Of a DNA stretch of 64,000 bases, positions 38,091 to 59,636 are shown one piece after another; position 1 is the stretch's first letter, and each line of letters opens with the position of its first letter. The translations under genes and the position numbers were made by a program. The stretch spans positions 51,297-115,296 of the forward strand of contig JAXMHM010000027.1 of assembly GCA_046346755.1 (NCBI GenBank). The letters run 5' to 3'. Under the pieces are notes generated by a model, which worked only from the letters and a program-made list of their open reading frames with translations, was not told where the DNA came from and did no database searches. Source of the DNA: Opitutaceae bacterium. Lineage in GTDB: Bacteria; Verrucomicrobiota; Verrucomicrobiia; Opitutales; Opitutaceae.

Positions 38091-38894
38091 TCAAGGCAGG
38101 AGCTCCGGCACCGTATCCCCGGGCTGCAGGGCGCGCACTCCGGTGGAGCGGTACACCCACGCGCTCCCGAGCAGAAAAGTCACTTTGCCATCGTGCAGGC
38201 GGGCGATCGCGGCGTTGCCAAGTCCAAAGACCGTCTCAGTGGGATTGAACTGCAGGTACACGCCTATCTTGGCGGCGCGGTACGCGTACTCTCCGGGGCT
38301 GGTCGGGTCGGGGTGATGCGGATTGATGACGGCCGGGAAAATCCCCAGGGCCTCGCGGGACGGAATGTCCGCCACCGGGAAATCGTTGGTGGTGCCAATG
38401 AGCAACCCCGCTACGTTGGCACCCGCACTCGTGCCTCCATACGGCACCCCGGCAAGGACCCGGCGGCGAATCACCTCCACCTGACCGGTGCGGTACAGTT
38501 CACCGAGCACCACAAACGTCTCACCGCCGCCGACAAAAATCCCGTCGGCCGTCTCCAGCAGAGCAATCGCACCCGCCGCATCTCGGCGGTGCAACGAAGT
38601 CACCACCTGTCCCCCAAGGTGAGTGAACGCCTCCTGCAGGCGGAGTTCCATGCGATCTCGCTCCGACGGATGGCTGGCATGCAGCACCAGGGCGATCGTC
38701 TTGCATCCCTGAAAGTGCGTTCGCATGGCCGGAAGTGTCGCGTCCGAAAAGTGATTTCCGGACATCATGCTTCCGCCGATGACCAGCACCGAGGCACGCG
38801 GCGAGGTGTGAAACACCGGCTCGGCGGCGGCCAGCGACGGCACGGCCAGTGCAAGGAGGAGGGCAAAGACTGGAAAGGCAGACGCAGGAGGCAT
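38091..38894 (-). CDS. peptidase S51 / class I glutamine-amidotransferase-like secreted protein
   Basis: Signal peptide; GIFVGGGETF and GGTSAGANV (nucleophile Ser context) resemble dipeptidase E/cyanophycinase-type S51. Start at the ATG at 38894. Confidence 0.65.
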   Translation of the reverse strand: MPPASAFPVFALLLALAVPSLAAAEPVFHTSPRASVLVIGGSMMSGNHFSDATLPAMRTHFQGCKTIALVLHASHPSERDRMELRLQEAFTHLGGQVVTSLHRRDAAGAIALLETADGIFVGGGETFVVLGELYRTGQVEVIRRRVLAGVPYGGTSAGANVAGLLIGTTNDFPVADIPSREALGIFPAVINPHHPDPTSPGEYAYRAAKIGVYLQFNPTETVFGLGNAAIARLHDGKVTFLLGSAWVYRSTGVRALQPGDTVPELLP

Positions 38895-38949
38895 GTCGTA
38901 CGACGTTGAAGAAAATTCGGAGTGAAGGCGACTCCACATCCACCCTCAC

Positions 38950-40365
38950 TCAGGGAAACGGCCAATAGCCGACGGCCTTCATCCGCTTTTCGAGGGCGAA
39001 CCGTGTGAACAGGGTCTCGGTTTCTCCGGCCGGTCGGCGCCAGGCTCCGAGCGAACGATCCTCAACCAGGGTCATCAGCAGGTCCGCGATGATGACCGTG
39101 GAGTCGACCACAATCTTCTCCGGGAGTTTGTCGATGGTATCAGCCAGATCATGATAGTAGCGCACGGACTCCCGTGGGATCGGTGCGTTGAAGGTGATGG
39201 CCCGGACGCCAGCGAGTTGATAGGGCGTATGGTCGCTCCCGTACCAGTTGATGTTCTGCACCCCCGTCGGCAGGCGTTCCTTCGGGAAACGCCGGTGCCA
39301 GGCCTTGAGAAACGGAAGCAGCGACTCATCGCCCAGTGCGTTAACGGCGATGGGCACGCCGACCATGTCGAGGTTGATCATCGCCACCACGGGAGCATTC
39401 CCCAGCTTGCCGGCCTGGTGGCGCGAGCCCCACAGCCCCTGTTCCTCGCCATTGAACCACACCAGTTCAACCGTCCGGGCCAGCTCCTTGCCGCGCAGGC
39501 TGTCCGCCAGCGCATAGAGCTGGGCGATCCCCAGTCCGTTGTCCAGGGCACCTTGTCCGAGATCCCAACTGTCCATGTGCGCCCCGACAATCACGCGATC
39601 CGGCGAACGGCCCGGAAACCGGAGGACCACGTTGGCGGTCGTCACCGGCTTATTGTGTGACCGGGTCTCGACGCGGAGGCGGACCGCCGTGCCCCGTTCC
39701 ATCAGCCGCCGCAGCCAGTTCCCTTCTTCCTGCGCGAGGGAGTAGATCGGAACCGGAAGCGGCTCTCCGACAAAACTCCCGGTGCGGGCCAGCAACTGAC
39801 CACCGGCCTCGCGATTCACAAACAGCAGGGCGAGAAGGTTGCGCTCCTTGGCGTTTCGCACCATCTCCGCGGCAGCCAGCGCCGTACCCGACTGGATCAA
39901 ACCAATCCGGCCCGCCACCGACTCCTTCGGATAATCGGTGGCCTTGCCATCCTTGACATCCACCAGGAGTCCCTCGACCGGGGCATGCGCCTCCGAGTAG
40001 GCGAGCGCCGCGACGCGCAGGCGTCGCGGAAAGGGCTCGATCAGGTCAACTCGATCCTCGCCCCGTTCCCACCCCGGCATCGTGAAGGCATCCAGTTCTG
40101 GCTCGAGTCCAAGCGCGCGCAGCTCGCGCACCAGTTGGTCCAGGGCGCGCTGGCCCGCCGGGGAGCCCGTCAGGCGGCCACCCACATCGTCACAGAGCCG
40201 CGTGAGCATGGCATGCGCCGCCGCGCCGGATCGAGCAACGGCTTCCGCGCGGGCCGCGGACGGCTTGGCCGCCGGCAACGTTGCCGCAGCCCCGGCGACC
40301 AGACACACCGTCAGGGGCAGCCAGCGCCGCAACACCTTGGTTACACCAGTATCCATGATTCTCAT
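38950..40365 (-). CDS. M28-family metallopeptidase with PA domain, secreted
   Basis: Signal peptide; GAHMDSWD, WFNGEEQG and GSDHTPY metal-ligand motifs. Confidence 0.85.
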   Translation of the reverse strand: MRIMDTGVTKVLRRWLPLTVCLVAGAAATLPAAKPSAARAEAVARSGAAAHAMLTRLCDDVGGRLTGSPAGQRALDQLVRELRALGLEPELDAFTMPGWERGEDRVDLIEPFPRRLRVAALAYSEAHAPVEGLLVDVKDGKATDYPKESVAGRIGLIQSGTALAAAEMVRNAKERNLLALLFVNREAGGQLLARTGSFVGEPLPVPIYSLAQEEGNWLRRLMERGTAVRLRVETRSHNKPVTTANVVLRFPGRSPDRVIVGAHMDSWDLGQGALDNGLGIAQLYALADSLRGKELARTVELVWFNGEEQGLWGSRHQAGKLGNAPVVAMINLDMVGVPIAVNALGDESLLPFLKAWHRRFPKERLPTGVQNINWYGSDHTPYQLAGVRAITFNAPIPRESVRYYHDLADTIDKLPEKIVVDSTVIIADLLMTLVEDRSLGAWRRPAGETETLFTRFALEKRMKAVGYWPFP

Positions 40366-40389: not shown

Positions 40390-42279
40390 CTACTCGGGCT
40401 TGACGCGATCAGCGATGGTCAGGGTGTTGAAATCGAGCACGCGCTCCAGCCGACCGTGCGTGAGCGTCAGCTTCTGGGAGCCCTTTTCGGCGTTCAGGTA
40501 GGGGCCTTCGAAGAGTTTCCACCGGCTGTAGTCGACCGTCTTGCCGTTCACCACCGGCGCCTTGCCATAGGTGGCCACCACGGTCTTGCCGCGCAGGGTC
40601 TTCCAGGTGACGGTCGGCACCGGCTCCAGCTTGTAGGACAACGGCAGCGCGCGAATCGCCGCCTGAAACGCCTCCATCGAAGAAAACTCCGACACACTCG
40701 CCGCCTGCACGATCGTGCCGTTCTTGAGGTGCGGGCTGTAGAGTCGGCGATCTCCCTTCTCCACGCGATCAGGCACCCAGGAACTCTTGTAGCCTTTGAC
40801 CGGCTGCCACTCGTAGGGAGCGAGGGGACGGTAGGCGAGATAGGCATCGCCTCCGCGCGCAAAGATCCAGCCCGAAGAATCCTCGGTCAGGTCTTTCAGA
40901 TCGGTGGAGAAGAACCCATTGATGTGCGGAAACCGGGTTCCGGGCGGTATGTCATAGAGCGCAATCACGCTGTCGAGGTCCTGGAACACCTGCTCGAAGC
41001 GGGAACTGCCGAGGAACTTGTCCGGCGAATCGTAGGAAACCTTGCCCTCCTTGGTCACCGAGTTGGTCATGCGATCCGGCAACTCCGCAAAATAGGTCAT
41101 CATGTCGTGGGAGGACGAGATCGGGTGGAGCGAGAACATCGTGTTGTGCGCCCCGCGCGGATCCGGGACCGCCCAGGTCACATCCCAGACGTGGGTCTGG
41201 ATGGGGTCGCTGAGGCCGCCCTGCGTCGATCCCACTGCGTACTCCTTGCGCGAGTAGTTGGTCTTGTAGATGGGCGCCATTTCAACATCGCTGTTGCGCC
41301 AGCGGCGGCGCGTGCGCTTGAGGTCCCGCTGCAAGAAATCGCCGCTGCGGTCCACCCCGATCCGGTAGATGACCTCGGGCAGGTCATAGTACCGTGCCGC
41401 AACCGCAAAGTAGATCCCCCAGCCGCCGTAACCCGAAGGGGTCGGGGTGTTACCGAGCATCTGCCAGCTGAAATACGAGGAAAGGGCGTTCCAGCGTTCC
41501 ACCACGGAGACGTCCTCGCTCCGGGCATTGGGGCCATGCAGCACCCCCTCAAGCGAGTTGGCAAACTGGTCGGCCAGGATCCAGTCAAGCATCATGCGGG
41601 CGCGCGTGCGCATCGCCGGGTCCTCCGCCCACGCGGTCAGGTAGACCAGGGGGATGGCGTACTCACCGATGTAGTGACTGCACGTATACTCGCCCTGGCC
41701 GATCGTGGTGGCGAGCTTCATCCAGTGGATCAGATAGTCCCGCGCCTCCTCCAGATTCTCGGACGAGCTCTTGCCTGTGTACCAGCTGGATCCGGGTTCA
41801 TTCGGATAGAGCTGAGCCATGAGGTAGAGCGACGAATAGTACATGCACCAGTGGTTTTCCGTGTCACCCCGCAGCTGCATGGTCGAACTCCATGCGCTCC
41901 GGAGCGCCGCCCGCGCCTCGGCGGACAGCTGGTCGCGGCCGAGGTAGGCCACGGCCACCGCGGGAAACATCCAGAACGGGCCGCTGCCCGGCTCCTTCGC
42001 ATGCTCAATCACCGTGCGGTTGCACCGCTCGATGTCCTGGCGCAGGGCCAGCTGGGTCGCCACCGCGGCCATGTCCCCCAGAAGGGGTGCATCGGCCTTG
42101 ATCAGTCCGGAGCGCCAGGCAAGGGCTTCGTGAATCCGATCCTCATAGGCCTGCCGTCGCACCGCGGCGGACGTCACCACGGTCCGGTCGGGCACCGGGC
42201 CGACAAACGAGGGCTGCGCCACCGCCGTGGCCGCCGCGAAAAAGGAAAGAAAGGGGAGGAAAATCGAGCGGGCGTTCAT
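40390..42279 (-). CDS. secreted protein of unknown family, 629 aa (paralog of 49525..51453)
   Basis: Signal peptide (start at the ATG at 42279). Blocks shared with the paralog: GDTENHW.MYY, GQGEY, IGEY..PL, SRMMLD, LKRTR.R.R, GS.QGGL..PIQ, YDSPDK, GTRFPHI, GWIF..GG..Y.AYRP. Confidence 0.85.
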   Translation of the reverse strand: MNARSIFLPFLSFFAAATAVAQPSFVGPVPDRTVVTSAAVRRQAYEDRIHEALAWRSGLIKADAPLLGDMAAVATQLALRQDIERCNRTVIEHAKEPGSGPFWMFPAVAVAYLGRDQLSAEARAALRSAWSSTMQLRGDTENHWCMYYSSLYLMAQLYPNEPGSSWYTGKSSSENLEEARDYLIHWMKLATTIGQGEYTCSHYIGEYAIPLVYLTAWAEDPAMRTRARMMLDWILADQFANSLEGVLHGPNARSEDVSVVERWNALSSYFSWQMLGNTPTPSGYGGWGIYFAVAARYYDLPEVIYRIGVDRSGDFLQRDLKRTRRRWRNSDVEMAPIYKTNYSRKEYAVGSTQGGLSDPIQTHVWDVTWAVPDPRGAHNTMFSLHPISSSHDMMTYFAELPDRMTNSVTKEGKVSYDSPDKFLGSSRFEQVFQDLDSVIALYDIPPGTRFPHINGFFSTDLKDLTEDSSGWIFARGGDAYLAYRPLAPYEWQPVKGYKSSWVPDRVEKGDRRLYSPHLKNGTIVQAASVSEFSSMEAFQAAIRALPLSYKLEPVPTVTWKTLRGKTVVATYGKAPVVNGKTVDYSRWKLFEGPYLNAEKGSQKLTLTHGRLERVLDFNTLTIADRVKPE

Positions 42280-42286
42280 GGTGGGC

Positions 42287-43312
42287 TCAGCGGGAGGCCG
42301 ACGGTTGAAAGACAAAACTGTGCACGGTTGAACCTTCCAGCCCGGCGGGTCTCCAGGTCCGCCCGAAGTCATCGGATTGGTAGAGGTCCATTTGATACAC
42401 GCTCAGGTAGAGCCGGCCCGTGCCCGGATCGATCCCGACGGAAATGCCGTGCGATTCAGGGGGCAATCCTTCAATCCGCTGTTGCCAGGTCTGACCGTCA
42501 TCCTCGCTCACCCAGACTCCGAAGGTCCAGCTGGAGATCGCCAGGCGACCGCGCCGGGAGCCGTCAAACGCCACGTTGTAGAGCGAGTGCTCCGGAGAGA
42601 GGCCGGGCAGTTGTTTCCAGGTGACTCCGCGGTCGCGGGACATCCAGGCTCCGTCTTCATGGGTGACCGCGATCCACTGGGTCGGATCATGGGGCGATTG
42701 CTGGACATCCCCCACCGTAGCCCGGGTCGGAAGCACGCGCCGCCAGCGCTTGCCGGCGTCCTCCGTCAGGTAGATGCCGGATTCGCATCCCGCGAGCACC
42801 CGGCCCGCCCGGGTCCGGTCGACCTCGATGGTCTGGGTGTACTTGCCCCGGTTCGGCAATCCGTTCTCGCAACGAGCCCAGGTGGCACCACCGTCGCGCG
42901 ACACCGCAATCCCATCCGGCAGGGCCAGGTAGAGATGATCGAGGGCGGACGGGTCGCGCGAGACGTCCTTTCCCTCCGTCATGTCCCAGCGGGTGGCGAT
43001 TCGGAGACTCTTGCCCCCATCCTGACTCGTGACGGCTCCGTTCAGGGTTGCCATGACCACCCGATTCCGATCTCGCGGATCGAACGAGGCCTGGAACAGG
43101 TGCGGAAAATTGAGTCCAAAGTGCTCAAACGCGCCCGTCTCGGTTCTGCGAAAGAGCCCGTTTTCAGTCACCAGCTTTGAACCAATCACGTAGTTGCGAT
43201 TGACCGCGGCGCACAGGACGAGGTCATAGGCCGAGGCGGCGAATGCCTTCGCCGACATCAGCAAACCGGCCGCAACCGCAAGTCCCAGGGTGAGCGTGTG
43301 TCGTGTCTTCAT
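42287..43312 (-). CDS. BNR/Asp-box repeat beta-propeller protein, secreted
   Basis: Signal peptide and six S-x-D-x-G-x-(T/R)-W boxes (SRDGGATW, TEDAGKRW, SRDRGVTW, SEDDGQTW, SDDFGRTW ...). Confidence 0.85.
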   Translation of the reverse strand: MKTRHTLTLGLAVAAGLLMSAKAFAASAYDLVLCAAVNRNYVIGSKLVTENGLFRRTETGAFEHFGLNFPHLFQASFDPRDRNRVVMATLNGAVTSQDGGKSLRIATRWDMTEGKDVSRDPSALDHLYLALPDGIAVSRDGGATWARCENGLPNRGKYTQTIEVDRTRAGRVLAGCESGIYLTEDAGKRWRRVLPTRATVGDVQQSPHDPTQWIAVTHEDGAWMSRDRGVTWKQLPGLSPEHSLYNVAFDGSRRGRLAISSWTFGVWVSEDDGQTWQQRIEGLPPESHGISVGIDPGTGRLYLSVYQMDLYQSDDFGRTWRPAGLEGSTVHSFVFQPSASR

Positions 43313-43371
43313 AAAGCGTGGCTTCTGTCATTGCGGTGGGGCGGGACGCCGGCCAAGTCTCGGGGAACACC

Positions 43372-43899
43372 ATGAAAACGCACGTTCTGGCGCTCGCCAC
43401 CCTCCTCGTCCTTGCCTGTCCCCGGCTGCTGGCGGCTCCCTCCGTGGAAGCCCGGCTGGCCGAACTGGGTCTCACCCTGCCCGCGCCCGCGACGGCCATC
43501 GCCAACTACGTTCCGGCCGTGCGGACGGGAAATCTGGTGTTTCTCGCCGGTCAGATCGCCCGCGGTCCCGACGGCAAATTCCTCGTCGGCAAAGTCGGTC
43601 GCGAGGTGAACGAGGCCGATGCCAATGCCGCGGCGCGCACCTGCGCCTTGCAGCTCCTCGCCGCCCTCAAGGCGGAGCTGGGCGACCTGTCCAAAGTGAA
43701 ACGCATCGTCCGGGTCGGAGGCTTCGTCAACTGCACCGATGACTTCACGGCGCAGCCCAAGGTGGTGAATGGCTGCTCGGATCTGCTCGTTGCCGTGTTC
43801 GGCGACAAGGGACGGCATGCCCGGGCCGCCGTTGGCGTCAATGCACTTCCCGCCGGCGCCCCGGTGGAAATCGACCTCGTGGCCGAAGTCGTCGACTGA
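43372..43899 (+). CDS. RidA/YjgF-family protein with N-terminal signal peptide
   Basis: Start at the ATG at 43372 (MKTHVLALATLLVLACP...). RidA-like core (GNLVFLAGQI ... ARAAVGVNALPAGAPVEI). Confidence 0.8.
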   Translation: MKTHVLALATLLVLACPRLLAAPSVEARLAELGLTLPAPATAIANYVPAVRTGNLVFLAGQIARGPDGKFLVGKVGREVNEADANAAARTCALQLLAALKAELGDLSKVKRIVRVGGFVNCTDDFTAQPKVVNGCSDLLVAVFGDKGRHARAAVGVNALPAGAPVEIDLVAEVVD

Positions 43900-43914
43900 A
43901 CAACACCGCATGAC

Positions 43915-45210
43915 CTAAAGCTCCCGGGTCGAGGCCTTGAGGCCCGCGATGACGCGCTCGCAATCGGACTGGGACGTGAAGAGGTGAGTGGACACCCGCA
44001 CCGCCTGCAGTCCCTGCTCGGTGACGGGCCGGCAGCGCAGGTGGTGTTTTTTGAGCAGGAAATCGAACAGGACCGAGGCCTTCGCCCGCGCGTGCTGCAC
44101 CGTCATCATGGAACCACGCAACGCGGGATCCCTGGGAGTGAGGATCGTCAGGCCTGCAACGGCCTTCAGTTCATCGATCAGGTGGCTCGCCAGGCCATGA
44201 CCGCGCGCGGCCACGCGGTCGCGTCCGATCTTCTGCTGAAAACGGACGGCTTCCGCCAGGGCCGCGACCGCGCCGGCATTGCGGGTGCCGTACTCGTGGC
44301 GCGTGGCTGACTCCGCGTACTTCAGTTCACCCGGAAGGTAGTCCAGTTCGCCCGAGTGGGCGCCGATTCCCGTCGGGGCGACGTCGGCCAGCCGGTCGCG
44401 TCGCAGAAAGAGCACACCGGTCTCATGCGGGGCGCCCAGCCACTTGTGTCCGCTAAAGGCGTAGGAGTCGCAGCCGATCGCGGCAAAGTCGACCGGCACC
44501 ATGCCGACCGACTGGGCGCCGTCGATGTGAAACCAGATCCCGCGGGAGCGGGCCAGCGCGGCGATTGCCGCCACCGGCAGGACGACGCCTGCGGTGCAGG
44601 TGATGTGACTCACCTGGATGACCCGGGTGCGGTCCGTCACGAGCGCTTTGATACGCTTGAGATTCTCCTCGTCGCTCGTCGCGGCCGGCTCGAACAGCCG
44701 GACTTTGATGCCTCGCTGACGGACCTGGTTGAACCAGGGAAACGAGCCGCCCGGATGCGCGTGCGTTTCAAAGATGACCTCGTCGCCTTCGCGCAGGGAC
44801 AATCCCGCCGCAATGATGGAATTGCCCTCGGTCGCGTTGCGCACGAAGCAGATTTCCTCGGGCTTCGCCCCGACAAAGGGAGCGACTGTTTCCCGCGCCA
44901 CTTCGAACCGGGCGTGACCCGTTTCGGAGTGCTCCTGCAGTTCCAGCATGGTCGAAAAAAAGGTGTCCAACACCGGCTGAGGGGTGGGACCGAGTCCCCC
45001 AGTGTTCAGGTAGACGGGATCCTCCAGCAGCGGGTACAGGGCCCGCACCGAACGCCAGTACTCGTCGGCTCGCGCCGGGTTGAAAACCGGCACGGACGCG
45101 GGGGTGGAGCGTGCGGTGGCCGCAGCCGCCGCGGCGGTGGTGCAGCCGGCCAGTGCACCGAGGGTTCCGAGACCGAAGCCCTGGACGAAAGTTCTGCGAT
45201 CGAGGTTCAT
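43915..45210 (-). CDS. class V aminotransferase-fold PLP enzyme with twin-arginine (TAT) signal
   Basis: DRRTFVQGFGLG TAT motif, NTGGLGP, HIDGAQS and SGHKW (PLP Lys). 4-nt ATGA overlap with the upstream gene. Confidence 0.85.
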   Translation of the reverse strand: MNLDRRTFVQGFGLGTLGALAGCTTAAAAAATARSTPASVPVFNPARADEYWRSVRALYPLLEDPVYLNTGGLGPTPQPVLDTFFSTMLELQEHSETGHARFEVARETVAPFVGAKPEEICFVRNATEGNSIIAAGLSLREGDEVIFETHAHPGGSFPWFNQVRQRGIKVRLFEPAATSDEENLKRIKALVTDRTRVIQVSHITCTAGVVLPVAAIAALARSRGIWFHIDGAQSVGMVPVDFAAIGCDSYAFSGHKWLGAPHETGVLFLRRDRLADVAPTGIGAHSGELDYLPGELKYAESATRHEYGTRNAGAVAALAEAVRFQQKIGRDRVAARGHGLASHLIDELKAVAGLTILTPRDPALRGSMMTVQHARAKASVLFDFLLKKHHLRCRPVTEQGLQAVRVSTHLFTSQSDCERVIAGLKASTREL

Positions 45211-46070
45211 GGCACGCAGGTGAAGGTGAGCACGTGGTCGACTTCGATCCGCTGACCCGGTGCAACCTCCCGGTTCTGATCGAATTCGGTCGGAAAGGCC
45301 GCCAGCGGATAGTTGCGCCGCACAAACCAGGGGAGCGGCCCCGGGCGATTCTCAAACCGGATTACCACGCGACGGAGCGACTCGTCGAGCTGCCCGTGCC
45401 ACTCCATCCATCGCGCCGGCACCCCATGGACCGCCTTGATTCCCTCCAGGCCGCCCTCGGCCGTGATCTTGATCGTGGCGTCGAGGTGATCGTCGAGCAG
45501 CTCCCGGACTCCTCGAAACTGCAGTCCGCTGTAGTGCGAGCCCGCCAGTCCGCCCTGCGAGTGGGGATTCCCGAGGGAGAGGGTCTCACCGGATACATTG
45601 TCCAGGTGACTCAGCCAGTGCAGCGACCAGGATCCGGCGACCTCATCGACTGCGACCGCCAGGGCACGGGTCTCGCGAAACAGCACGCGGTCGTCGCGTT
45701 TCCAGTCGAGGGTATGCGCCAGCGTGGCCCGCGGACCCGCCGCTGCCAGCGTGATCCATCCGGTGTGGCACTGCCGCCCGTGGTTTTCCTTCCATTGATA
45801 ACCCGCCTCCCGGGTGCAGGTGGGGCCGCCCCAGAAATTCGTTCCCGAGACCTGGTTGAGCGTCAGGCTCAAGGCATGATGCCACGGGTGATCATTGGGA
45901 CGAAACACCGTGAGGGTGTCGCCCTTCAGCGATTTGACCGGGTGCAGGAACGGACGGGGGGATTCCTTCAGCTCCGTGGCGGGAAGGTAGTGGTAGCGAA
46001 AGAGCAGGTGCTCCCCGGAAAAAACGGCCACGGAACGACCGATGTCATGCTGAAGGTGAAGGGCGCTCAT
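45207..46070 (-). CDS. DUF6807 (PmoA-like) family protein
   Basis: RPFLHPVKSL.G..LT.FRPNDHPWHH.LSLTL..VSG.NFWGG pattern. ATGA overlaps at both ends. Confidence 0.7.
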   Translation of the reverse strand: MSALHLQHDIGRSVAVFSGEHLLFRYHYLPATELKESPRPFLHPVKSLKGDTLTVFRPNDHPWHHALSLTLNQVSGTNFWGGPTCTREAGYQWKENHGRQCHTGWITLAAAGPRATLAHTLDWKRDDRVLFRETRALAVAVDEVAGSWSLHWLSHLDNVSGETLSLGNPHSQGGLAGSHYSGLQFRGVRELLDDHLDATIKITAEGGLEGIKAVHGVPARWMEWHGQLDESLRRVVIRFENRPGPLPWFVRRNYPLAAFPTEFDQNREVAPGQRIEVDHVLTFTCVP

Positions 46071-48508
46071 GGCAGGAGGAAGGTTTCTTGGAAGTGGGAA
46101 TCGATGACGTGACGGGTGGCTCCCCCTGGCAGACGGAGATCCGCGGGCACGCCCTCTGGCTTTTTCAATGAGAACTGTAGCCGGGAACCTTCGCGTCGCC
46201 AGGCGACCTCGATCATTCCCCGCGGCGTGCAGACACTGCCTGACGCGTGAGTGAGACCGCAGAGGCGGGGCTCGACCGCAATGCGGGCAAAACCCGGCTC
46301 GGTCGGGGTCACGCCGAGGATGCGCTGCTGGAATTCCAGCACAGGATGAGCCGACCAGGCATGGCAGAGCGAACGCCAGTAGCTGTTTTCCTCGACGAAG
46401 GTGGACAGCCCGTAGCCCACCGATTCATGCCAGGGACCGAGGTGACGGGTCATGTCGTCATAGTGTCCACAACGCAGGAGCGCCGTGAAGCCCGTGTGCC
46501 ACCAGAAGAAGGAGCCGGGCGCCAGCTTCTCGTCATGGGGAAAACGCCGCATGAGAATCGCGCGCTCCCGCTCGCCCGGCAGGCCGGCCACCACGGCCCA
46601 GGCATTGCCATACTGACTGACCTCGGGACCGCCGGGGCGGTCAAAGTACAGTCCTTCGGACTCGGACCAGAAGCGCGCATGGGCCTTGATCCGAAGCGCC
46701 GCCGCTTCCGCAACCAGCGCCGCCGCCTCGGCCTCGCGGCCGACAAACCGCAGCAGCCAGGCCGTTTCGTCCAGGGCGACGATGAACTGCGTGGTGAAAA
46801 TCGTGGTGGGCCCGTGGTCGGCGCCAGGCACCACCCCACGCGGCCACCACGGGCACCAGTCGGTCACATTCCAGAAAGGCAGGCGCGATGGCAGCCCGTC
46901 GGCGTCACTGTGACGCCGATACCAGTCCAGGACCGTCCGCACCCCCGGGAGCAGGTCCTTCACCGTGGCCAGGTCCGCGGTGCAGGCAAAGTAGTCCTTG
47001 ATCGTCGTGATCCAGTGGATGCTCCACGCCGGGATGATCTGGACGAGTCGCGAGGGATACCGGGACTGCGTCAAACCGTCGGAAAGCCGGGACCAATCGA
47101 AGTGGTAAAGCGCCTGCCGGCTCAGTCGTGCATCGCCGGTGGTGTACAACGCGAGCTTCGAGGTGATCATGGTGTCACCCGCGTACTGCATCTGCTCGTA
47201 GTGAGGACAGTCCTCAAACGTCTCGTGCGAACACATGCGCATGGTGTGCAGGCCGACCTTCCAGATCTGGTCCATCGCCGGATCCGAGCAGGTAAAAGTG
47301 GCGGTGACCTTGTAAGGATAGGCGGTGAAGCGCTGACGGATCGACCGAAGGGTCAGCGGCTGGCTGCCCACCGTGATTTGCAAACCTACATAGCGGAACG
47401 CCCGCCAGTGCAGGGGTTCGAACACGTCGTCGCGACCGGAGGGTTCCCAGTGATCGCTCCAGCCGGTCACTTCGCCGCGGCGGTCGAACGTCCAGCCCCG
47501 CGTCTCGTCGGCGAAGTGCGAGGCAAGGTTGGCCAGTGGCTGCTGGCGTCCCAGCAACTTCGCGCCCGGCGTATCCCACCGCAGCCGCAGGGCCTCGGCA
47601 TAGGTCAACCGTACGGAACTCCCCTGCCCGCCCGAGACGTCCAAGCGGGGAAATGCGGTCGTGAGGATGCCCATGTCCAGCACCACGTCGACGGTGGTGC
47701 CCGCCGGCAGCGTGAGCGACTCGCCCCGATCCAGCAGCGCCTTCCAATCAGCCGGCACCGGCGCGCCGCCGCGCAGGTAGGCGTCGGGGAAGGGCGCGGG
47801 CTCGCCCTCCTCCAACATGGGAATCATGCGCGGCATCAATCCGTAGGGACTGGTTGGGTCGCGGCGATTCTCCAGTAACTCCGCCTTGAACAACACATGG
47901 GCTGGGGACCAGGCGCCATCGTCAAACTCCGGCTCTCGCCAACCCACCTGTTCCTCGGCGGAAACCCGATGCTCGAAATAGCCATGGTAGCCCTCGAAGG
48001 TGGTGCCGTCGTTCTGAAACCGGTGCGCCCGGTCGACCGACACCTTCCAGGTGGCGTCCGTCGCCAGCTCGCTGAGGCGTTCTCCCTTCCCACCCACCAC
48101 GGCGCCTTCGAGCACAAATCCACCCGTGTAGGTCATGATCGAGCACGGCGCGCCGAGTAGCGCGGGGCGGTGCGCGACATGCGACATGTCCTGCACCAGG
48201 GCGGCCAGCACATTGCGCCCGCGGCGCAGGTGCGGCGTGAGATCAAACGTATCAAAAAAGTGGTGATTCACATCACCCTTGGCAGGCCCGCGGCCGACAA
48301 AGACCCCATTGCACCAGAACAGGTAGCGGCTGTCCGCGGAGAGCCGAACCTCGAGACGTGACCGCTCCGGGTCGTCCACCGCGAAGGTGCGCCGGAAGAG
48401 ACGCACCTGGTAGTGCGACGGCGTGGCGTTTTCAGGCGCGGGTGCGCCGTGGGAACCCTCGCTGGACCAGATCCAGGAGGCGGAGTTGACGAAGGGGACG
48501 GGAGACAC
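46067..48508 (-). CDS. GH78-family alpha-L-rhamnosidase-like glycoside hydrolase
   Basis: N-terminal pattern (ASWIW..., YQVRLFRRTF, LSADSRYLFWCNG..VGRGP) and a six-hairpin region typical of bacterial rhamnosidases. No signal peptide seen. Confidence 0.75.
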   Translation of the reverse strand: MSPVPFVNSASWIWSSEGSHGAPAPENATPSHYQVRLFRRTFAVDDPERSRLEVRLSADSRYLFWCNGVFVGRGPAKGDVNHHFFDTFDLTPHLRRGRNVLAALVQDMSHVAHRPALLGAPCSIMTYTGGFVLEGAVVGGKGERLSELATDATWKVSVDRAHRFQNDGTTFEGYHGYFEHRVSAEEQVGWREPEFDDGAWSPAHVLFKAELLENRRDPTSPYGLMPRMIPMLEEGEPAPFPDAYLRGGAPVPADWKALLDRGESLTLPAGTTVDVVLDMGILTTAFPRLDVSGGQGSSVRLTYAEALRLRWDTPGAKLLGRQQPLANLASHFADETRGWTFDRRGEVTGWSDHWEPSGRDDVFEPLHWRAFRYVGLQITVGSQPLTLRSIRQRFTAYPYKVTATFTCSDPAMDQIWKVGLHTMRMCSHETFEDCPHYEQMQYAGDTMITSKLALYTTGDARLSRQALYHFDWSRLSDGLTQSRYPSRLVQIIPAWSIHWITTIKDYFACTADLATVKDLLPGVRTVLDWYRRHSDADGLPSRLPFWNVTDWCPWWPRGVVPGADHGPTTIFTTQFIVALDETAWLLRFVGREAEAAALVAEAAALRIKAHARFWSESEGLYFDRPGGPEVSQYGNAWAVVAGLPGERERAILMRRFPHDEKLAPGSFFWWHTGFTALLRCGHYDDMTRHLGPWHESVGYGLSTFVEENSYWRSLCHAWSAHPVLEFQQRILGVTPTEPGFARIAVEPRLCGLTHASGSVCTPRGMIEVAWRREGSRLQFSLKKPEGVPADLRLPGGATRHVIDSHFQETFLLP

Positions 48509-48526
48509 GGGGAAAACAGCGGACGG

Positions 48527-49528
48527 TCAGCGGAGGGGAGCCGGCAGAAAGGAAAAATCAAATCCATGGGCGCCATAGAGGCCACCCGATTTCCACGTAC
48601 GGCCCAAATCGTCGGAAAAAAAGGTCCCTTCCTCGAACGTGGAAGCCCACAGTCGTCCGTCCGCGTCCGGATCAAACGCCAGAACGAGGACATTGCGAAC
48701 CGGCAGTCCCGCCGAGCGATCCTGCCAGGTTGCGCCGCCATCGCTGCTCACTCGCACACCCTGGGACCACCCGCCCACCGCCAGGACCGACGCATCCCGG
48801 CGGTGCAACGCCACCGCGTAGAGATTGGCCGTGGCCGACGCGGGGTCCGTCGCGACCCAGGTCTCCCCTGCGTCGCGCGAGATCCAGGCCCCGCGGTGCT
48901 GCGTGCCGGCAATCAGCAAGCGAGGATTCGCCTCGCTCTGCGCCAGCCGCAGGATGGTGGTGGAGGGAGAAGGCACGCGATTCCAGGTGACAGCGCCATC
49001 GGTCGACACGAAGACGCCGTCCGCCGTGCCGAGAATGACACGGTGGGTTCGCGCGCGGTCTGCCACCACGGTCTGGCAATAGAGCTCGGTGAGCCCCGCT
49101 TGAGCGAGCGACCAGGTGGCGCCGCCGTCCTCGGAACGGATCGGCCCCCACAGGGTGGCGGCGTAGACGCGGCTGGGTTGATTCCGATCAAAGGCGAGGC
49201 TGCGCACATCGGCCACCTGCCAGCCCGTGGTCTTGCGCCACGTACCACCACCATCGACGCTGCGAATAACCCCATCGGCGCTGCCAATCAACAGCACGCC
49301 CGGAGCGCCTGGCTGGCCTGCCACGGTGGCAATGCCAAGAATACGCGGTCCGAAGTGCCGCCATTCACCGCTGCCTTCGCGTCGGTAGAGTCCGGAGTCG
49401 GTCGGTATGGAGGAGTTCTTTTGCGCCTTGGTCATGCCCACGGCCGCGTAAAGCTGCGCCGTTTCGGCACCGACAACGGCCACGGGGACTCCCAGGAACA
49501 GGACCAATAAAGTGAAAACGGAGTTCAT
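48527..49528 (-). CDS. BNR/Asp-box repeat beta-propeller protein, secreted (paralog of 42287..43312)
   Basis: Signal peptide and six Asp-boxes (SVDGGGTW, SEDGGATW, STDGAVTW, SRDAGETW, SSDGGATW, SDDLGRTW). Confidence 0.85.
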   Translation of the reverse strand: MNSVFTLLVLFLGVPVAVVGAETAQLYAAVGMTKAQKNSSIPTDSGLYRREGSGEWRHFGPRILGIATVAGQPGAPGVLLIGSADGVIRSVDGGGTWRKTTGWQVADVRSLAFDRNQPSRVYAATLWGPIRSEDGGATWSLAQAGLTELYCQTVVADRARTHRVILGTADGVFVSTDGAVTWNRVPSPSTTILRLAQSEANPRLLIAGTQHRGAWISRDAGETWVATDPASATANLYAVALHRRDASVLAVGGWSQGVRVSSDGGATWQDRSAGLPVRNVLVLAFDPDADGRLWASTFEEGTFFSDDLGRTWKSGGLYGAHGFDFSFLPAPLR

Positions 49529-51453
49529 GGCCGGACAAACGAGTGCTCAGTCACCGCCCGCTGAAAATCGAGCACGTAGCGTTCGATGCCGTATCGGAGT
49601 TCGAGGCGCTGGCTTCCCCGGTCGGCCACGCCATACGGACTCTCGAACAGCGGCCAGTGCGCCGTATCCATGGCCGTGCCATTGACCGAGGGTGCCTGTC
49701 CGTAGCGGGCGTGGAGTCGACTCCCATCCAGACTGGCATAATTGACCTCCAGTCCCGGATCGGTGGTCGTGGTGAGAGGGAGGGATCGAACCGCCGTCTG
49801 AAACGCTTCGTAGGAGGCAAAGTCCCGCGCCGGGGCCACCTGCACGACGTAACCGTTGCGCGGAGCGGTGCTGACATAGCAGCGGTGTCCCGTTCCCCAT
49901 TCCTTGAAGCCAGAACTGATGAAGCCCCCCGCCCCACCGGCCAGGAGTCCAGTCCAGTCGTTGGGTCGCCACTCGCCCCGCACGAGCGGTCGGTACGCAA
50001 TATAGACCGGGCCGCCTTGGGAAAAAATCCAGCCCGACGGGTCTTCGACCGTGTTGCGCAGGTCGCGGGAAAACAGGGCGGTGATATGAGGAAAGCGGGT
50101 GCCCGACGGCAGATCGTAGAGCGCGATCAGCGCCGCCCCGTGCTGGAACACCTGCTCATAGGGCGAACCGCCGGCCAATTTGTCGGGCGAATCATAATCC
50201 ACCTTGGACCGTACAATCGTGTCCGTCGTCGTGTCCCAGGACATGGGAAAATACATCGTGCCCTCATGCGGTGACGAATACGGATGCAGGGCAAAGAAGG
50301 TGTTGGACGCATCCAAGGGCTGGTCCACGCGCCAGCGCAGGCTCCAGGTTTGTTGCTGGATGGGTTGGAGCAAGCCGCCTTGGGACGAGCCAAGGACAAA
50401 GTCCTTGTCGACATAACTGTACTTGTAGACGGGAGCCGTGCGCTTGTCGCCCACGACAAACGATTCCGGCCCAGCCTGACGCATTCTCCAACGGGTGCGT
50501 TTCAGCTCCCGTTCCACATAGGGACGGTCCGGCGTCCGGGCGATTCGCTCAAGGATGGGAGGCGGTGTGTAGCCACTCATCGCGAGGAGAAGGGCCTGCT
50601 GACTCATCTGCCGGTCACCCAGTCCAAAAAGCAGCCACCCCAGCGCCGCGGCGGTGGTGCGAGCCGGTTGCAGCAACTGGCGGGGGTAAACCCGGCTGTG
50701 GGCTCCCGCATACTGTCCGGACAGGTGTTCGATGACGTAGTCGTAGGCCAGGTAGTCGAGCATCATGCGCGATTTCTGCCGAAGCAGCGGATCGTCACAC
50801 CACCCCGCGAGCAGGGCCAGCGGCACCACGTACTCGCCGATGTAGCCTGGCGAATCGTACTCGCCCTGGCCAAACGACGTGGTGACTCGCATCCAGTGTT
50901 CGAGATAGGACCGGGCCTCCTCCCGGTTCTCCTCCGCCGACCGGCCGTTGAACCAACGCTCCGGCCCGGAATCTTTCCACGTCTGCGCAGCCAGGTACAG
51001 TCCCCCGTAGTACATCACCCAGTGGTTCTCGGTATCGCCACGACTTGGCCAGTAGGTTCGCCACAGCTCCGCAATCCGCTTCCACGATGTATCGTCCAGC
51101 GCCGGCCCTCCCGCCGCCATGACCGCAGCCATGGGGTACATCCAAAACATATTCTGCGTGGGCACCGCTTCATTCAATCGCGCCAGTCGCGCCAGCGCCG
51201 CCTTGCGGCTTTCACCCCGTTGCAAGGCCGCCGCCACGTCCAGAACACTCCCACGATTGGCATCGTTCTCGTCCAGATTTGACACCGCCGTCCGCAGGAT
51301 CCACTCGCGACGAAGCTGAAAGCGCCGGGCAATCTCCGCGTCTGAAGAGAAGTGAATGCCTGACTCCTGCGAAAACACCGGCAGCACACCCACCCAAATC
51401 ATGAAAAAAAACCATGTTGAGCGACCAAGGGGCAGTCCTGAAAACAACGACAT
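49525..51453 (-). CDS. secreted protein of unknown family, about 642 aa (paralog of 40390..42279)
   Basis: Same conserved blocks as the paralog. Start inferred at the ATG at 51453 (MSLFSGLPLG..., signal-like); the ORF-track start is 51510. ATGA overlap with the downstream BNR gene. Confidence 0.85.
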   Translation of the reverse strand: MSLFSGLPLGRSTWFFFMIWVGVLPVFSQESGIHFSSDAEIARRFQLRREWILRTAVSNLDENDANRGSVLDVAAALQRGESRKAALARLARLNEAVPTQNMFWMYPMAAVMAAGGPALDDTSWKRIAELWRTYWPSRGDTENHWVMYYGGLYLAAQTWKDSGPERWFNGRSAEENREEARSYLEHWMRVTTSFGQGEYDSPGYIGEYVVPLALLAGWCDDPLLRQKSRMMLDYLAYDYVIEHLSGQYAGAHSRVYPRQLLQPARTTAAALGWLLFGLGDRQMSQQALLLAMSGYTPPPILERIARTPDRPYVERELKRTRWRMRQAGPESFVVGDKRTAPVYKYSYVDKDFVLGSSQGGLLQPIQQQTWSLRWRVDQPLDASNTFFALHPYSSPHEGTMYFPMSWDTTTDTIVRSKVDYDSPDKLAGGSPYEQVFQHGAALIALYDLPSGTRFPHITALFSRDLRNTVEDPSGWIFSQGGPVYIAYRPLVRGEWRPNDWTGLLAGGAGGFISSGFKEWGTGHRCYVSTAPRNGYVVQVAPARDFASYEAFQTAVRSLPLTTTTDPGLEVNYASLDGSRLHARYGQAPSVNGTAMDTAHWPLFESPYGVADRGSQRLELRYGIERYVLDFQRAVTEHSFVRP

Positions 51454-51539: not shown

Positions 51540-52409
51540 ATGATCCACGCGCCCAAAACCTCCGTCCCCCGACTGATTCAATGTGCCACGCCCTGGTCGC
51601 TCGAAGGATATCCCAACTCCCGAAAGGAGTGGCCCTTGGAGCGAAAATTCCGAGCCATGAAAAAGGCTGGATTTGACGGAGTGGCGGCCTTCATGACACC
51701 CGAAAAAAAAGCCCTGGCCGACCAATTGGGACTGCGGGTGATGGGGGGATTCGACGGATCCGGCTACACGCAGGCGCGTCGCCAGATGCTCGCGCAGCGT
51801 GACTTGGGGGTACACTTCATGAACGTGCAGTTGCTCGACCATGATACGGCGCCCGAGCGGGCGGTGGCATTGGCGCTCCGCCTGCTCGCTCTCTCGCGCC
51901 GCCTCGGGCTGGGGGTGCATGTCGAAACCCACCGGGATACCTCGACGGAGACTCCGGAAAAGTACACCGAGATCGCCCGGCTCTATCAGAAGGCGACCGG
52001 CTCCCTGCTTCCCACCACCTGGGATCACTCGCACTTCGCCGTTTCCAAACACATCCTGCCCAAAGACTACTCACGCCGGTTGCTCGCCTGGCCAGAGCTG
52101 ATTCAGCACTCGCAGATCTTCCACCTCCGGCCCTTCAACAGTCAGCATTGCCAGGTTCCCGTCACCAATGGAAAGGGACGCCTTACCCCTGAATTCCGCG
52201 ACTACCTTGCCTTTGTCGAGGACCTGTTTGCACTCTGGCTGCAGGGGCCGCAGCCTGGCAAAGAACTTTGGGTCTGCCCGGAGCTTGGCACGAGCGTCGG
52301 CTACAATGTCAGCACCAACCCGCCCGTGTGGGCGGATGCAATCCGAGCAAGGCAGGAATACGCGAAGGCTTGGCGGCGCGCACTCCGCCGCGTAGGGTCG
52401 AAACCCTGA
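51540..52409 (+). CDS. sugar phosphate isomerase/epimerase (xylose isomerase-like TIM barrel) family protein
   Basis: About 290 aa; alternating beta/alpha pattern with conserved His/Glu/Asp positions (VHVETHRDT, WDHSHF). Sits in a carbohydrate locus. Confidence 0.65.
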   Translation: MIHAPKTSVPRLIQCATPWSLEGYPNSRKEWPLERKFRAMKKAGFDGVAAFMTPEKKALADQLGLRVMGGFDGSGYTQARRQMLAQRDLGVHFMNVQLLDHDTAPERAVALALRLLALSRRLGLGVHVETHRDTSTETPEKYTEIARLYQKATGSLLPTTWDHSHFAVSKHILPKDYSRRLLAWPELIQHSQIFHLRPFNSQHCQVPVTNGKGRLTPEFRDYLAFVEDLFALWLQGPQPGKELWVCPELGTSVGYNVSTNPPVWADAIRARQEYAKAWRRALRRVGSKP

Positions 52410-57365: not shown

Positions 57366-59636
57366 TCACGGAGCCGGTTCACGATCGAGTCGGGCCGTGG
57401 CCCGGAGGCGGGCCTGAGTGATGTCGTCCACACGCATGCGGGCCTGAATGACCTCGACCAGCCTGGGCTGCTGGTCCCGGATGAACTTGGACTGAGGCGA
57501 CTCATCCTGCGCACGCGCCAACGCTTCGATCAGCAGGGCCAGGCCCTCGACATCGTCGCGAGGCAGAAGCCGGTCCTTCACATGCAGGGCCGCAAGATTG
57601 AAGAGCGAGAGGACATTGCCGCGGTTCGCCGCACGCCGGTAAAGCTCAGCAGCCTTCGCAAAGTCCACCGGCACCCCCACGCCGTACTCGTGACACACCC
57701 CGAGGTTGTGCTCAGCTCCAGTCGCGCCCTTGGCCACGAGATCGGTGAACAGCGCAAACACGCGCGCCGGGTCCGGTTTGACTCCGAGGCCTCGCGTATA
57801 GAGATCCGCCAACCGGTAGCCTGCCTCGAGATTTCCCAGCTGGTATTGCTGTGAAAAGTACGCAAAGGCCGCCGCCGCATCACCCTTCTGCAGCGCCGCG
57901 TCCCCGGGGGCGACGCTGAAGGTCAGGATCTCTCCCCCCTCGCCCACATACAGCCCCGGTAGGTAGTCACCCAGCGCTTCCTTCCGCCAGTAGTGACCGG
58001 TCGACTGCTGGGTCGCCCGGTCCGTGAAGGCCATGCGCGAACTTTTCATGCGGATCACCGTGGGCGGGCGGTCTGGAAACGGGTTACGCGGGAACAGTCC
58101 CACCACCAGACGATTGTCGGCAAGGAGGTGCGAGGCCACGACGGGAAACACCCGCGCCTTGCGTTCGCCCCATGCCGCGATCTGGAGGCTGGCCTCAAAG
58201 CGGGGAAACCAGGGTGCAATGAAGGGGCAGATACGATCCAGCCGCTGCGGAAGGTAGCGGTAGTCGTAGGTTCTCCAGGTGCGGCCATTGTCGTTGGAGC
58301 CCTCGAAATCCACCTGGTACCGCGCCTTATCGAATTTGGCATAGAGCGAATATTCATTCGCACTGCTCAACCCCTTGGCCCAGGTCACGGGCCACGAGAG
58401 CCAGGCCGGTGCGCTATAAATCGGAACCCCCGCCGCCTTGGCGAGGTAGAATCCAGCGACATAGAAGTGCGTCCACAGGGCAAGACTCAGGGCGCGAGAC
58501 TTCCAAGGAGAAACCACGCGGTAGGCGGCGGGTCGGACCACCGCCGCAAACACACCCTGCACACGAACAAGGCGAAGTCGCCCGGCCAGCGCAGCCAGCA
58601 TCTGGTCATCCAGCCACAGAAGCCCGAGCGCCAGCGCCGATACATTTAGCCAGCCAAAGTTGCTGGTCAGCTGAATGCCCAGCTGCAGGAGACTCCAGGT
58701 CACGAACGCAAACCAGCGTCCCCGCCGGCCGGCCAGCAGCGCGAGCACGGGAGCGAGCAACTCCGCGGCAAACGTCAGCCCAATCTCAAAGACGTGGTAG
58801 GCTTTCGGGAGATGAAAATCGAGGTAGCCAAAAATCGTTGGGAAGGGACTGGTCTCATACATCACCTCCATCGCCGTCAGGTTCCGCCAGTGGGGATCGC
58901 CCGCCACCAACTTCACGAGCCCCGCCTCGATCATGACGCGGAAGAGCAGCCACCGGACCATGAACATCACGAGGGGCCGGGGTGACGAATGCGCGCCGAG
59001 CCCAGGGCGCAAACCCGAAGGTGCGAACGGGATGCAGAGCAGGGCCACCTCCAGCATGAGGTCGTCGAGTTGCGCCGGAGAAAAAACACTCAAGGCCGAA
59101 ACAAAGGAGAGAAAAATCAGCCAGCAGCTGAACAGCGCCAGGCGTGGCCACAGGTTCAGAACCACCGCCGCAGCCGAAGCCAACCCGAGCCAGGTGAGCA
59201 AGCGGATCATGCCCTCACCCGAGTTCAGCCAAAAAAGACTGGGCGCACCGACAAAGGCTGAGAAGGCCGACTCGGAAGATCGGAGGTGAGCAAAGAACTC
59301 ACCGATCGGAACCACCCCGCGTGGTCCAATCAGGGCGTTCCCTTCATCGAGCAAGCCTGCAAAAATAATGACGTACACCAACCCCACCGCCCGAAGCACC
59401 AGCCATCGCGGCCACAAGTAGGTGGCGGAACCATCCGATCCCACCAGGTCCTGAACGCTCTCCTTGATCACCCGCCCCACTCCAGCCAGCGCACCGCGCG
59501 GTGCAGGCGTTGAAATTTCAGTCACTGCGGAGGCGGGGTTGGAATTAGGTTGGGCCACAAGGCTCTCTTGTCGGGAGCTACGACGGTGGTCCGACGCGAG
59601 CTGGCCGCACCACCGAGCGTGCGGCCAGCCAGTCAA
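57366..59636 (-). CDS. lipase-maturation-factor (LMF)-family polytopic membrane protein fused to C-terminal Sel1/TPR repeats
   Basis: LMF-like features (WPRWLVLR..., MEVMYETSPFPT). The C-terminal ~150 aa carry Sel1 repeats (G.LEAGYRLADLYTRGLGV, AEHNLGVCHEYGVGV, AAELYRRAA..G). The exact start is uncertain. Confidence 0.7.
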   Translation of the reverse strand: MTGWPHARWCGQLASDHRRSSRQESLVAQPNSNPASAVTEISTPAPRGALAGVGRVIKESVQDLVGSDGSATYLWPRWLVLRAVGLVYVIIFAGLLDEGNALIGPRGVVPIGEFFAHLRSSESAFSAFVGAPSLFWLNSGEGMIRLLTWLGLASAAAVVLNLWPRLALFSCWLIFLSFVSALSVFSPAQLDDLMLEVALLCIPFAPSGLRPGLGAHSSPRPLVMFMVRWLLFRVMIEAGLVKLVAGDPHWRNLTAMEVMYETSPFPTIFGYLDFHLPKAYHVFEIGLTFAAELLAPVLALLAGRRGRWFAFVTWSLLQLGIQLTSNFGWLNVSALALGLLWLDDQMLAALAGRLRLVRVQGVFAAVVRPAAYRVVSPWKSRALSLALWTHFYVAGFYLAKAAGVPIYSAPAWLSWPVTWAKGLSSANEYSLYAKFDKARYQVDFEGSNDNGRTWRTYDYRYLPQRLDRICPFIAPWFPRFEASLQIAAWGERKARVFPVVASHLLADNRLVVGLFPRNPFPDRPPTVIRMKSSRMAFTDRATQQSTGHYWRKEALGDYLPGLYVGEGGEILTFSVAPGDAALQKGDAAAAFAYFSQQYQLGNLEAGYRLADLYTRGLGVKPDPARVFALFTDLVAKGATGAEHNLGVCHEYGVGVPVDFAKAAELYRRAANRGNVLSLFNLAALHVKDRLLPRDDVEGLALLIEALARAQDESPQSKFIRDQQPRLVEVIQARMRVDDITQARLRATARLDREPAP

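Follow-up and report, generated by a model that had tools for sequence, protein, structure and literature searches.

Paired lyase-fold and Asp-box propeller proteins of Opitutaceae as a candidate two-subunit carbohydrate-active enzyme

The 64,000-nucleotide stretch of Opitutaceae DNA analysed here (the window, at its full length) carries two copies of a two-gene module, each encoding a large protein (A) and an Asp-box beta-propeller (B), all with signal-peptide-like starts. With a probability of about 0.6, A and B form a two-subunit secreted or periplasmic carbohydrate-active enzyme (CAZyme), in which A would be the catalytic subunit, with a polysaccharide lyase fold and from an unclassified family, and the propeller B would be its obligate partner. 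The reading draws on the modelled fold of A, the conserved adjacency of the two genes, their co-divergence, their natural fusions and the rigid model of one such fusion.

Two modules and the family of the large protein

All four open reading frames described in a first-pass annotation of the window are present on the minus strand:

A1, 40390-42279, minus strand: open reading frame of 629 amino acids (aa) with a signal-peptide-like N-terminus; helical toroid at ~38-310 and beta-sandwich at ~315-626.
B1, 42287-43312, minus strand: open reading frame of 341 aa, an Asp-box (BNR/Sortilin-Vps10 type) beta-propeller with a signal-peptide-like N-terminus.
A2, 49525-51453, minus strand: open reading frame of 642 aa, a paralog of A1 with a signal-peptide-like N-terminus.
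B2, 48527-49528, minus strand: open reading frame of 333 aa, an Asp-box propeller with a signal-peptide-like N-terminus.

The signal-peptide-like starts of all four proteins were read from the translations. In module 1, B1 precedes A1 with 7 nt between the B1 stop and the A1 start; in module 2, A2 precedes B2 and the A2 stop and B2 start share a 4-nt ATGA overlap, which bears out the inverted gene order noted before. A1 and A2 are 40% identical over ~560 aligned residues (E=6e-134), while B1 and B2 are 34% identical end to end (E=7e-53). The nine collinear motif blocks that the annotation had listed for the A proteins were all found in both, at matching positions, and six Asp-boxes with a spacing of ~43 residues are seen in B1 and in B2. 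Longer, upstream-extended reading frames exist for A1 (to 42372) and A2 (to 51510); the shorter A starts are supported by the length, 625-629 aa, of homologs in the databases (P0001-P0003 for A1, P0121 for A2). The nearest public contig, from the metagenome-assembled genome (MAG) of an Opitutaceae bacterium, encodes an A1 homolog at 98% identity.

The A proteins had been described as impossible to place in any family, and database searches (Pfam 2025, NCBIfam 2026 and PDB 2026 editions) lead to the same result. In particular, A1 and A2 have no Pfam match at E<=1 except one chance match, no NCBIfam match, and nothing relevant among PDB sequences by phmmer; chance matches in these annotation searches include TrpB, T4 lysozyme and a release factor. 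Pfam also returned no family match for any of 31 diverse members (A1, A2 and 29 relatives at 23-56% identity). The CAZy PL families were compared by sequence through their Pfam models (Hepar_II_III, Alginate_lyase, Lyase_8) and solved structures, and no significant sequence or profile similarity of A to any of these sequence-defined families was found. The family is nonetheless large: at least 1369 homologs were found for A1 and at least 1623 for A2, an exhaustive search at E<=1e-3 gave 941 clusters at 50% identity, and a scan of species-representative genomes confirmed ~570 A stretches. NCBI names all homologs 'hypothetical protein'. Two homologs carry the automatic UniRef labels 'Heparinase II/III family protein' and 'Heparinase II/III-like protein', which agree with the lyase fold class described below. 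A literature search for the A family, its Opitutus terrae accessions or a lyase-propeller pairing found nothing.

The AlphaFold2 model of A1, built from a 67-sequence alignment, has a predicted local distance difference test score (pLDDT) of 91.2 and a predicted template modelling score (pTM) of 0.91, and consists of an all-helical N-terminal domain (~38-310) followed by an antiparallel beta-sandwich (~315-626), the domain order that defines the fold class. A Foldseek comparison of the model with the PDB yielded 42 matches at E<=1e-3, and all 42 are polysaccharide lyases with an (alpha/alpha)-toroid and a beta-sandwich. The best matches are the PL35 GAGase II (9.7e-8) and the PL15 enzyme Atu3025 (2e-7), followed by PL39 Dp0100, PL12 heparinase III, PL33 BT4410 and PL17, and the list also includes the hyaluronate, chondroitin AC and xanthan lyases of PL8. 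Representative structures are 8khv (PL35 GAGases), 3a0o (PL15 Atu3025), 6jp4 (PL39 Dp0100), 8r70 (PL33 BT4410), 7bjt (PL17), and 4mmi, 4fnv and 5jmf (PL12 heparinase III); like A, these lyases are secreted and have a two-domain architecture. The model and Foldseek thus agree with the suggestion, made from composition, of alpha-rich N-terminal and beta-rich C-terminal halves as in polysaccharide lyases. Judged by the model, A is a new sequence family inside a known fold class.

Members of the A family elsewhere are fused to CBM9, BACON, CHB_HEX_C, F5/8-type-C, CARDB, dockerin and cohesin modules. Among them are three giant proteins of 1439-3372 aa (P0368, P0377 and P0382) with an embedded A-family domain, surrounded by F5/8-type-C, CARDB, CBM9, Fn3, 3-keto-disaccharide-hydrolase-like, cohesin and type I dockerin modules; these three have no propeller within the same polypeptide as the A domain. 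The domain content suggests that A domains may also be used in cellulosome-like assemblies.

Pairing of the two proteins across genomes

Adjacency of A and B was examined in a sample of one genome per species (~570 relatives), and the analysis used the best 78 loci, which all belong to Opitutaceae and related Verrucomicrobiota. These loci hold 111 A genes, 107 of them with enough flanking DNA to be tested. A directly adjacent B gene on the same strand was found for 104 of the 107, with a median gap of 35 bp between the two high-scoring segment pairs, and the remaining three A genes lie inside A-A tandem arrays beside a pair. The gene order outside the window is the same as within it, with B upstream of A1-type genes and downstream of A2-type genes, and tandem runs of two to four B-A pairs occur in many of the genomes.

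The two proteins also diverge together. Across 97 adjacent pairs and the two window pairs, the distance matrices of A and its partner B have a Mantel correlation of r=0.88, a value reached by 0/500 permutations, and in genomes with several pairs the lineage of B tracks the lineage of its A paralog in 44/47 tests. Together, these results indicate that the pair duplicates and diverges as a unit; the window copies would be old paralogs.

Further, A and B occur as single polypeptides. Eighteen A-B fusions of 950-1000 aa are present among the A2 homologs listed, and 150 cluster representatives include 19 B-A fusions and 2 A-B fusions. The fusions fall in at least five clades, and their two orders parallel the two gene orders of the window. 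The model of one natural fusion, the 979-residue protein P0226 of the cultured Horticoccus luteus, has a pLDDT of 88 and a pTM of 0.90, the latter indicating that the propeller is placed confidently relative to A and not at random. Adjacency, co-evolution and fusion, as an obligate two-subunit enzyme would be expected to leave them, were all found.

The pairing extends to other phyla. A B-A fusion occurs in a Planctomycetota MAG, and a metagenome scan with a profile from a 3-sequence alignment recovered six loci (L079-L084) of a distant clade, ~25% identical to A1, in which A is flanked directly by B on its upstream side and by a ~900-aa double Asp-box propeller on its downstream side. The triplet of one of these loci reads as follows:

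L084, 4902-5927: single propeller.
L084, 5920-7677: A.
L084, 7743-10538: double propeller.

A C-terminal sorting domain of the type IX secretion system is present on 2/3 of the double propellers scanned, and because of these tails the B-A-double-propeller loci appear, from sequence, to come from Bacteroidota. The double propellers match GH74 weakly (6.8e-17), through their repeats. This three-gene clade carries the motif S-E-H-E-R in A. In L080 and L084 the module adjoins a gene that we take, from its N-terminal sequence, to be murA.

The first-pass annotation had proposed a functional two-component unit, and it had named a pairing confined to this genome as the observation that would count against the proposal. 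With adjacency at 104/107, co-divergence, fusions in both orders and members in other phyla, the pairing reaches well beyond this genome and the proposal is strongly supported. We know of no toroid and sandwich lyase with an obligate Asp-box propeller partner or fusion, and a literature search for a toroid lyase combined with an Asp-box propeller found no example.

The propeller, the candidate active site and competing explanations

Both B proteins exceed the Pfam cut-offs for Sortilin-Vps10 and BNR (7.5e-24 and 4.2e-11 for B1) and carry the S-x-D-x-G-x-T-W repeats of BNR/Asp-box propellers. The 982 homologs of B1 go by the names Ycf48-like or BNR glycosyl hydrolase. The NCBIfam model 'F510_1955 family glycosylhydrolase' scores 106-113 bits against B1 and B2, below its cut-off of 175, and in the literature 'F510_1955' appears only as a locus tag from Anoxybacillus that has not been studied. 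In a structural comparison with the PDB, the best matches of the propeller domain in the natural A-B fusion model are 3b7f (TMt 0.67; the BNR protein Reut_B4987, which is uncharacterised), single propellers of GH74, DAIP and Ycf48. Ycf48/HCF136, DAIP and 3b7f resemble B in having ~310 residues with Asp-box repeats, and they are its best whole-chain matches (TMt 0.58-0.67), at an identity of only 15-21%; unlike B, Ycf48 and DAIP are neither beside nor fused to a lyase-like protein.

The comparison with GH74 xyloglucanases bears on the role of B. GH74 catalysis needs a cleft between two propellers, and the family is recognised by two tandem propellers, a catalytic cleft and two Asp residues. B aligns to one GH74 propeller (E ~1e-12, with a sequence match of 7.7e-9 to 3a0f) and to half of the GH74 chains only (TMt ~0.3); as a single propeller of 333-341 aa it cannot make an inter-propeller cleft. 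Ycf48 and DAIP are binding proteins, the former helping photosystem II assembly and the latter binding a protease. Since B is a single propeller where GH74 needs two, and since Ycf48 and DAIP bind, we consider a binding or structural role for B more likely than an enzymatic one. The propeller-fold uronate enzymes (PL42 Rha-GlcA lyase, GH145 and the PL24/25 ulvan lyases) share the fold of B, and the window holds GH78 and rhamnose-related neighbours. Prompted by the GH78 neighbour, a PL42-, GH145- or PL24-like catalytic propeller was considered for B and set aside, as none of these was in its top 50 structural matches; unlike those enzymes, B has Asp-boxes and groups with Ycf48, DAIP and GH74.

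Conserved positions of A, taken from a diverse alignment of family members and given in A1 numbering, offer a candidate active site. The (nearly) invariant polar residues are E141, E197, Y203, D220, D237, R253, R328, K421, S426, E429 and Q433, the conserved aromatics are W365 and W471, and N142-H143 is present in 26/31 A sequences. In the catalytic triplet tabulated for PL12, PL15, PL17, PL21 and PL35 (PMC12088678, Table 4), an Asn/His neutraliser is followed by a Tyr after ~54 residues and by a His after another ~130-166. In A, Y203 lies 60 residues after N142-H143 and H363 lies 160 residues after Y203. The order and spacing of this candidate triad fit the lyase triplet, with Asn-His at the start of an inner helix as in the toroid lyases and usually a His at the third position; we treat the fit as a hint and a lead, not as a test.

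The proposed enzyme can be outlined from these features. A would be the catalytic subunit, with the architecture of the PL8/12/15/17/21/33/35/39 lyases, and its active site would likely lie in the cleft between toroid and sandwich, lined by E141, N142-H143, E197, Y203, D220, D237, R253 and R328 and usually also by His at positions 251, 363 and 385. We infer lyase rather than hydrolase chemistry, acting on an acidic glycan. B would probably be a seven-bladed Asp-box propeller of the Ycf48/DAIP/GH74-half type that docks onto A in a fixed geometry, most likely forming a non-catalytic part of the A active site, either a wall or a substrate-binding lid, and not acting as a second enzyme.

The two modules differ within this candidate site. 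A1-type proteins have N251, H363 and H385, A2-type proteins have H251, Q363 and Q385, and across the wider A family the three positions are mostly His. The residue swaps suggest functional divergence between the modules, and because A1 and A2 differ at three otherwise conserved His positions, they would probably act on different linkages or substrates. The swap could also reflect a split metal site or a difference in the catalytic site. A more ambitious version of the proposal, which we hold only tentatively and consider somewhat doubtful, is that the pair founds a new CAZyme family whose active site is built jointly by the lyase-fold and Asp-box subunits, which handles a glycan or a chemistry beyond current CAZy, and whose A1 and A2 types represent two specificities or mechanisms.

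Several observations weigh against the proposed lyase-fold enzyme with a propeller subunit. The structural likeness of A1 to the lyases is remote (template modelling (TM) scores of 0.32-0.43 at 8-12% identity), and two hmmsearch profiles, from narrow and wide A alignments, found nothing relevant when run against all PDB chains; in this lack of detectable sequence or profile similarity, A is unlike the toroid lyases. The putative triad was assigned from residue spacing only. Its His is not universal, since position 363 is Gln throughout the A2 clade, and one distant clade has S-E-H-E-R instead of T-E-N-H-W, which turns N142-H143 into H-E. A also differs from the toroid lyases in its invariant carboxylates: five are near-invariant (E141, E197, D220, D237 and E429), and they would fit equally well in a hydrolase or at a metal site. 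The closest structural match of B is annotated merely as a 'putative glycosyl hydrolase', and it is we who infer a non-catalytic role for B. Moreover, no gene for a GH88/GH105 unsaturated-uronate hydrolase and no Kdu gene accompanies the module in the conserved cluster.

An unlikely alternative, and the strongest of those weighed, is that A and B are separate enzymes acting in sequence on the same glycan, with B outside the active site of A. For example, B could remove a cap, as an exo-glycosidase of the BNR/sialidase/GH74 type, and A could cleave the backbone, adjacency being kept for co-expression and fusions arising at times for channelling. Consecutive pathway enzymes are commonly fused, homologs of B are named 'glycosyl hydrolase BNR repeat-containing protein', and both the resemblance to GH74 xyloglucanase domains and the sub-threshold F510_1955 score (106-113 vs 175 bits) point the same way. 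However, the GH74 site lies between two propellers and B has one, the relatives Ycf48 and DAIP bind, the fused model is rigid (pTM 0.90), and co-divergence as tight as r=0.88 and 44/47 fits a physical interface better than co-expression.

It is more improbable still that the pair handles a peptide, a protein or an envelope component, with B as the protein-binding part and A as a scaffold, perhaps in envelope maintenance. Ycf48, DAIP and sortilin have peptide or protein ligands; M28 and S51 peptidases follow A1, a periplasmic PvdN-like enzyme and a RidA protein lie in the cluster, and housekeeping genes, including the presumed murA, surround the module in Horticoccus and the Bacteroidota-type loci. 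All significant structural matches of A, however, are polysaccharide lyases, A-family members are fused to CBM9, BACON, F5/8-C and dockerin modules, and the tandem expansion in Opitutaceae lies beside a LacI regulator and a TonB-dependent receptor, which are typical of nutrient-acquisition loci. The fusions to carbohydrate-binding and cellulosome modules are better evidence for carbohydrate than the gene context is. Least probable of all is membership of A in an existing CAZy PL family that has neither a Pfam model nor a solved structure, in which case only the propeller pairing would be new. The two 'Heparinase II/III' labels in UniRef favour it; the 31 diverse members without a Pfam, NCBIfam or PDB sequence or profile match, the uniform NCBI name 'hypothetical protein' and the lack of any paper mentioning the Opitutus terrae accessions in the literature search speak against it.

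Genomic context and significance

The cluster around the modules has a common order in Opitutaceae: LacI, a 289-aa protein, A2-B2, a GH78-like protein, a DUF6807 protein, a class-V pyridoxal phosphate (PLP) enzyme, RidA on the opposite strand, one or more B1-A1 pairs, M28 and S51. In the window, the neighbours of the modules are:

46067-48508, minus strand: GH78-like protein without a signal peptide (Pfam, NCBIfam and PDB; rhamnosidase B 2okx, 5.8e-57).
45207-46070, minus strand: DUF6807 protein without a signal peptide (Pfam, NCBIfam and PDB; Opitutaceae synteny).
43915-45210, minus strand: PvdN-like class-V PLP enzyme with a twin-arginine translocation (Tat) signal (Pfam, NCBIfam and PDB; Opitutaceae synteny).
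43318-43899, plus strand: RidA-family protein bearing a signal peptide, beside the PLP enzyme.
38950-40365, minus strand: M28 peptidase, directly downstream of A1 (Pfam and NCBIfam).
38091-38939, minus strand: PepE-like S51 peptidase, downstream of M28 (Pfam and NCBIfam).

From A2 and B2 through the genes for the GH78-like protein, the DUF6807 protein and the PLP enzyme, each gene either overlaps the next by 4 nt or is 18 nt away from it, and B1, A1, M28 and S51 are spaced 7-24 nt apart. The matches from a scan for promoters and terminators were only weak and for the most part intragenic, and the operon ends could not be set from them. The GH78-like and DUF6807 proteins have no signal peptide, yet they are translationally coupled to the secreted A2-B2 pair and a Tat-exported enzyme, and one operon thus appears, from the predicted signals, to mix compartments. 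The PLP enzyme aligns end to end with the periplasmic pyoverdine-tailoring PvdN (NCBIfam 3.6e-33, below cut-off); a periplasmic PLP enzyme and RidA pair beside the A/B modules is unusual, and it is conserved across Opitutaceae. M28 and S51 lie 0.1-4 kb downstream of A in many Opitutaceae loci. The 289-aa protein (51540-52409), earlier called sugar isomerase-like, has no Pfam or NCBIfam match at the thresholds used, and lies beside LacI in many Opitutaceae loci.

The GH78, LacI, TonB and isomerase-like surroundings had been offered as support for the module's function. They are conserved within Opitutaceae but not outside the family; the neighbours of the H. luteus fusion gene and of the Bacteroidota-type triplets are housekeeping genes. 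A context found only in Opitutaceae cannot name the substrate, and the rhamnose-containing substrate read from it was dropped; the GH78-like, DUF6807 and PLP genes are lineage-specific context outside the core module. Likewise, the whole 64-kb window was considered as a polysaccharide utilisation locus and rejected, because the genes outside ~38-57 kb are unrelated (PutA, a P-type ATPase, a histidine kinase, a methyltransferase and a POT transporter). Two further proteins were noted in those flanks. At 57366-59636, a 756-aa protein combines LMF1 (3e-38) and LMF1_C (1e-24) domains of a eukaryotic-type lipase maturation factor with Sel1 repeats, and a protein of 1411 aa at 7388-11623 joins an S8 subtilase domain with a PQQ/BamB-like beta-propeller and Ig domains.

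If A and B form the enzyme proposed here, they would be, to our knowledge, the first known case of a lyase-fold enzyme that needs a beta-propeller subunit. The A family is large and widespread, with up to fourfold tandem expansion in freshwater and soil Opitutaceae, and it is directly testable through natural fusions from cultured strains: the single-chain proteins P0226 of H. luteus and P0221 of Synoicihabitans lomoniglobus are ready-made constructs. As an enzyme, the pair would represent one more family with which Verrucomicrobiota, Planctomycetota and Bacteroidota, phyla with a major part in glycan recycling, degrade polysaccharides.

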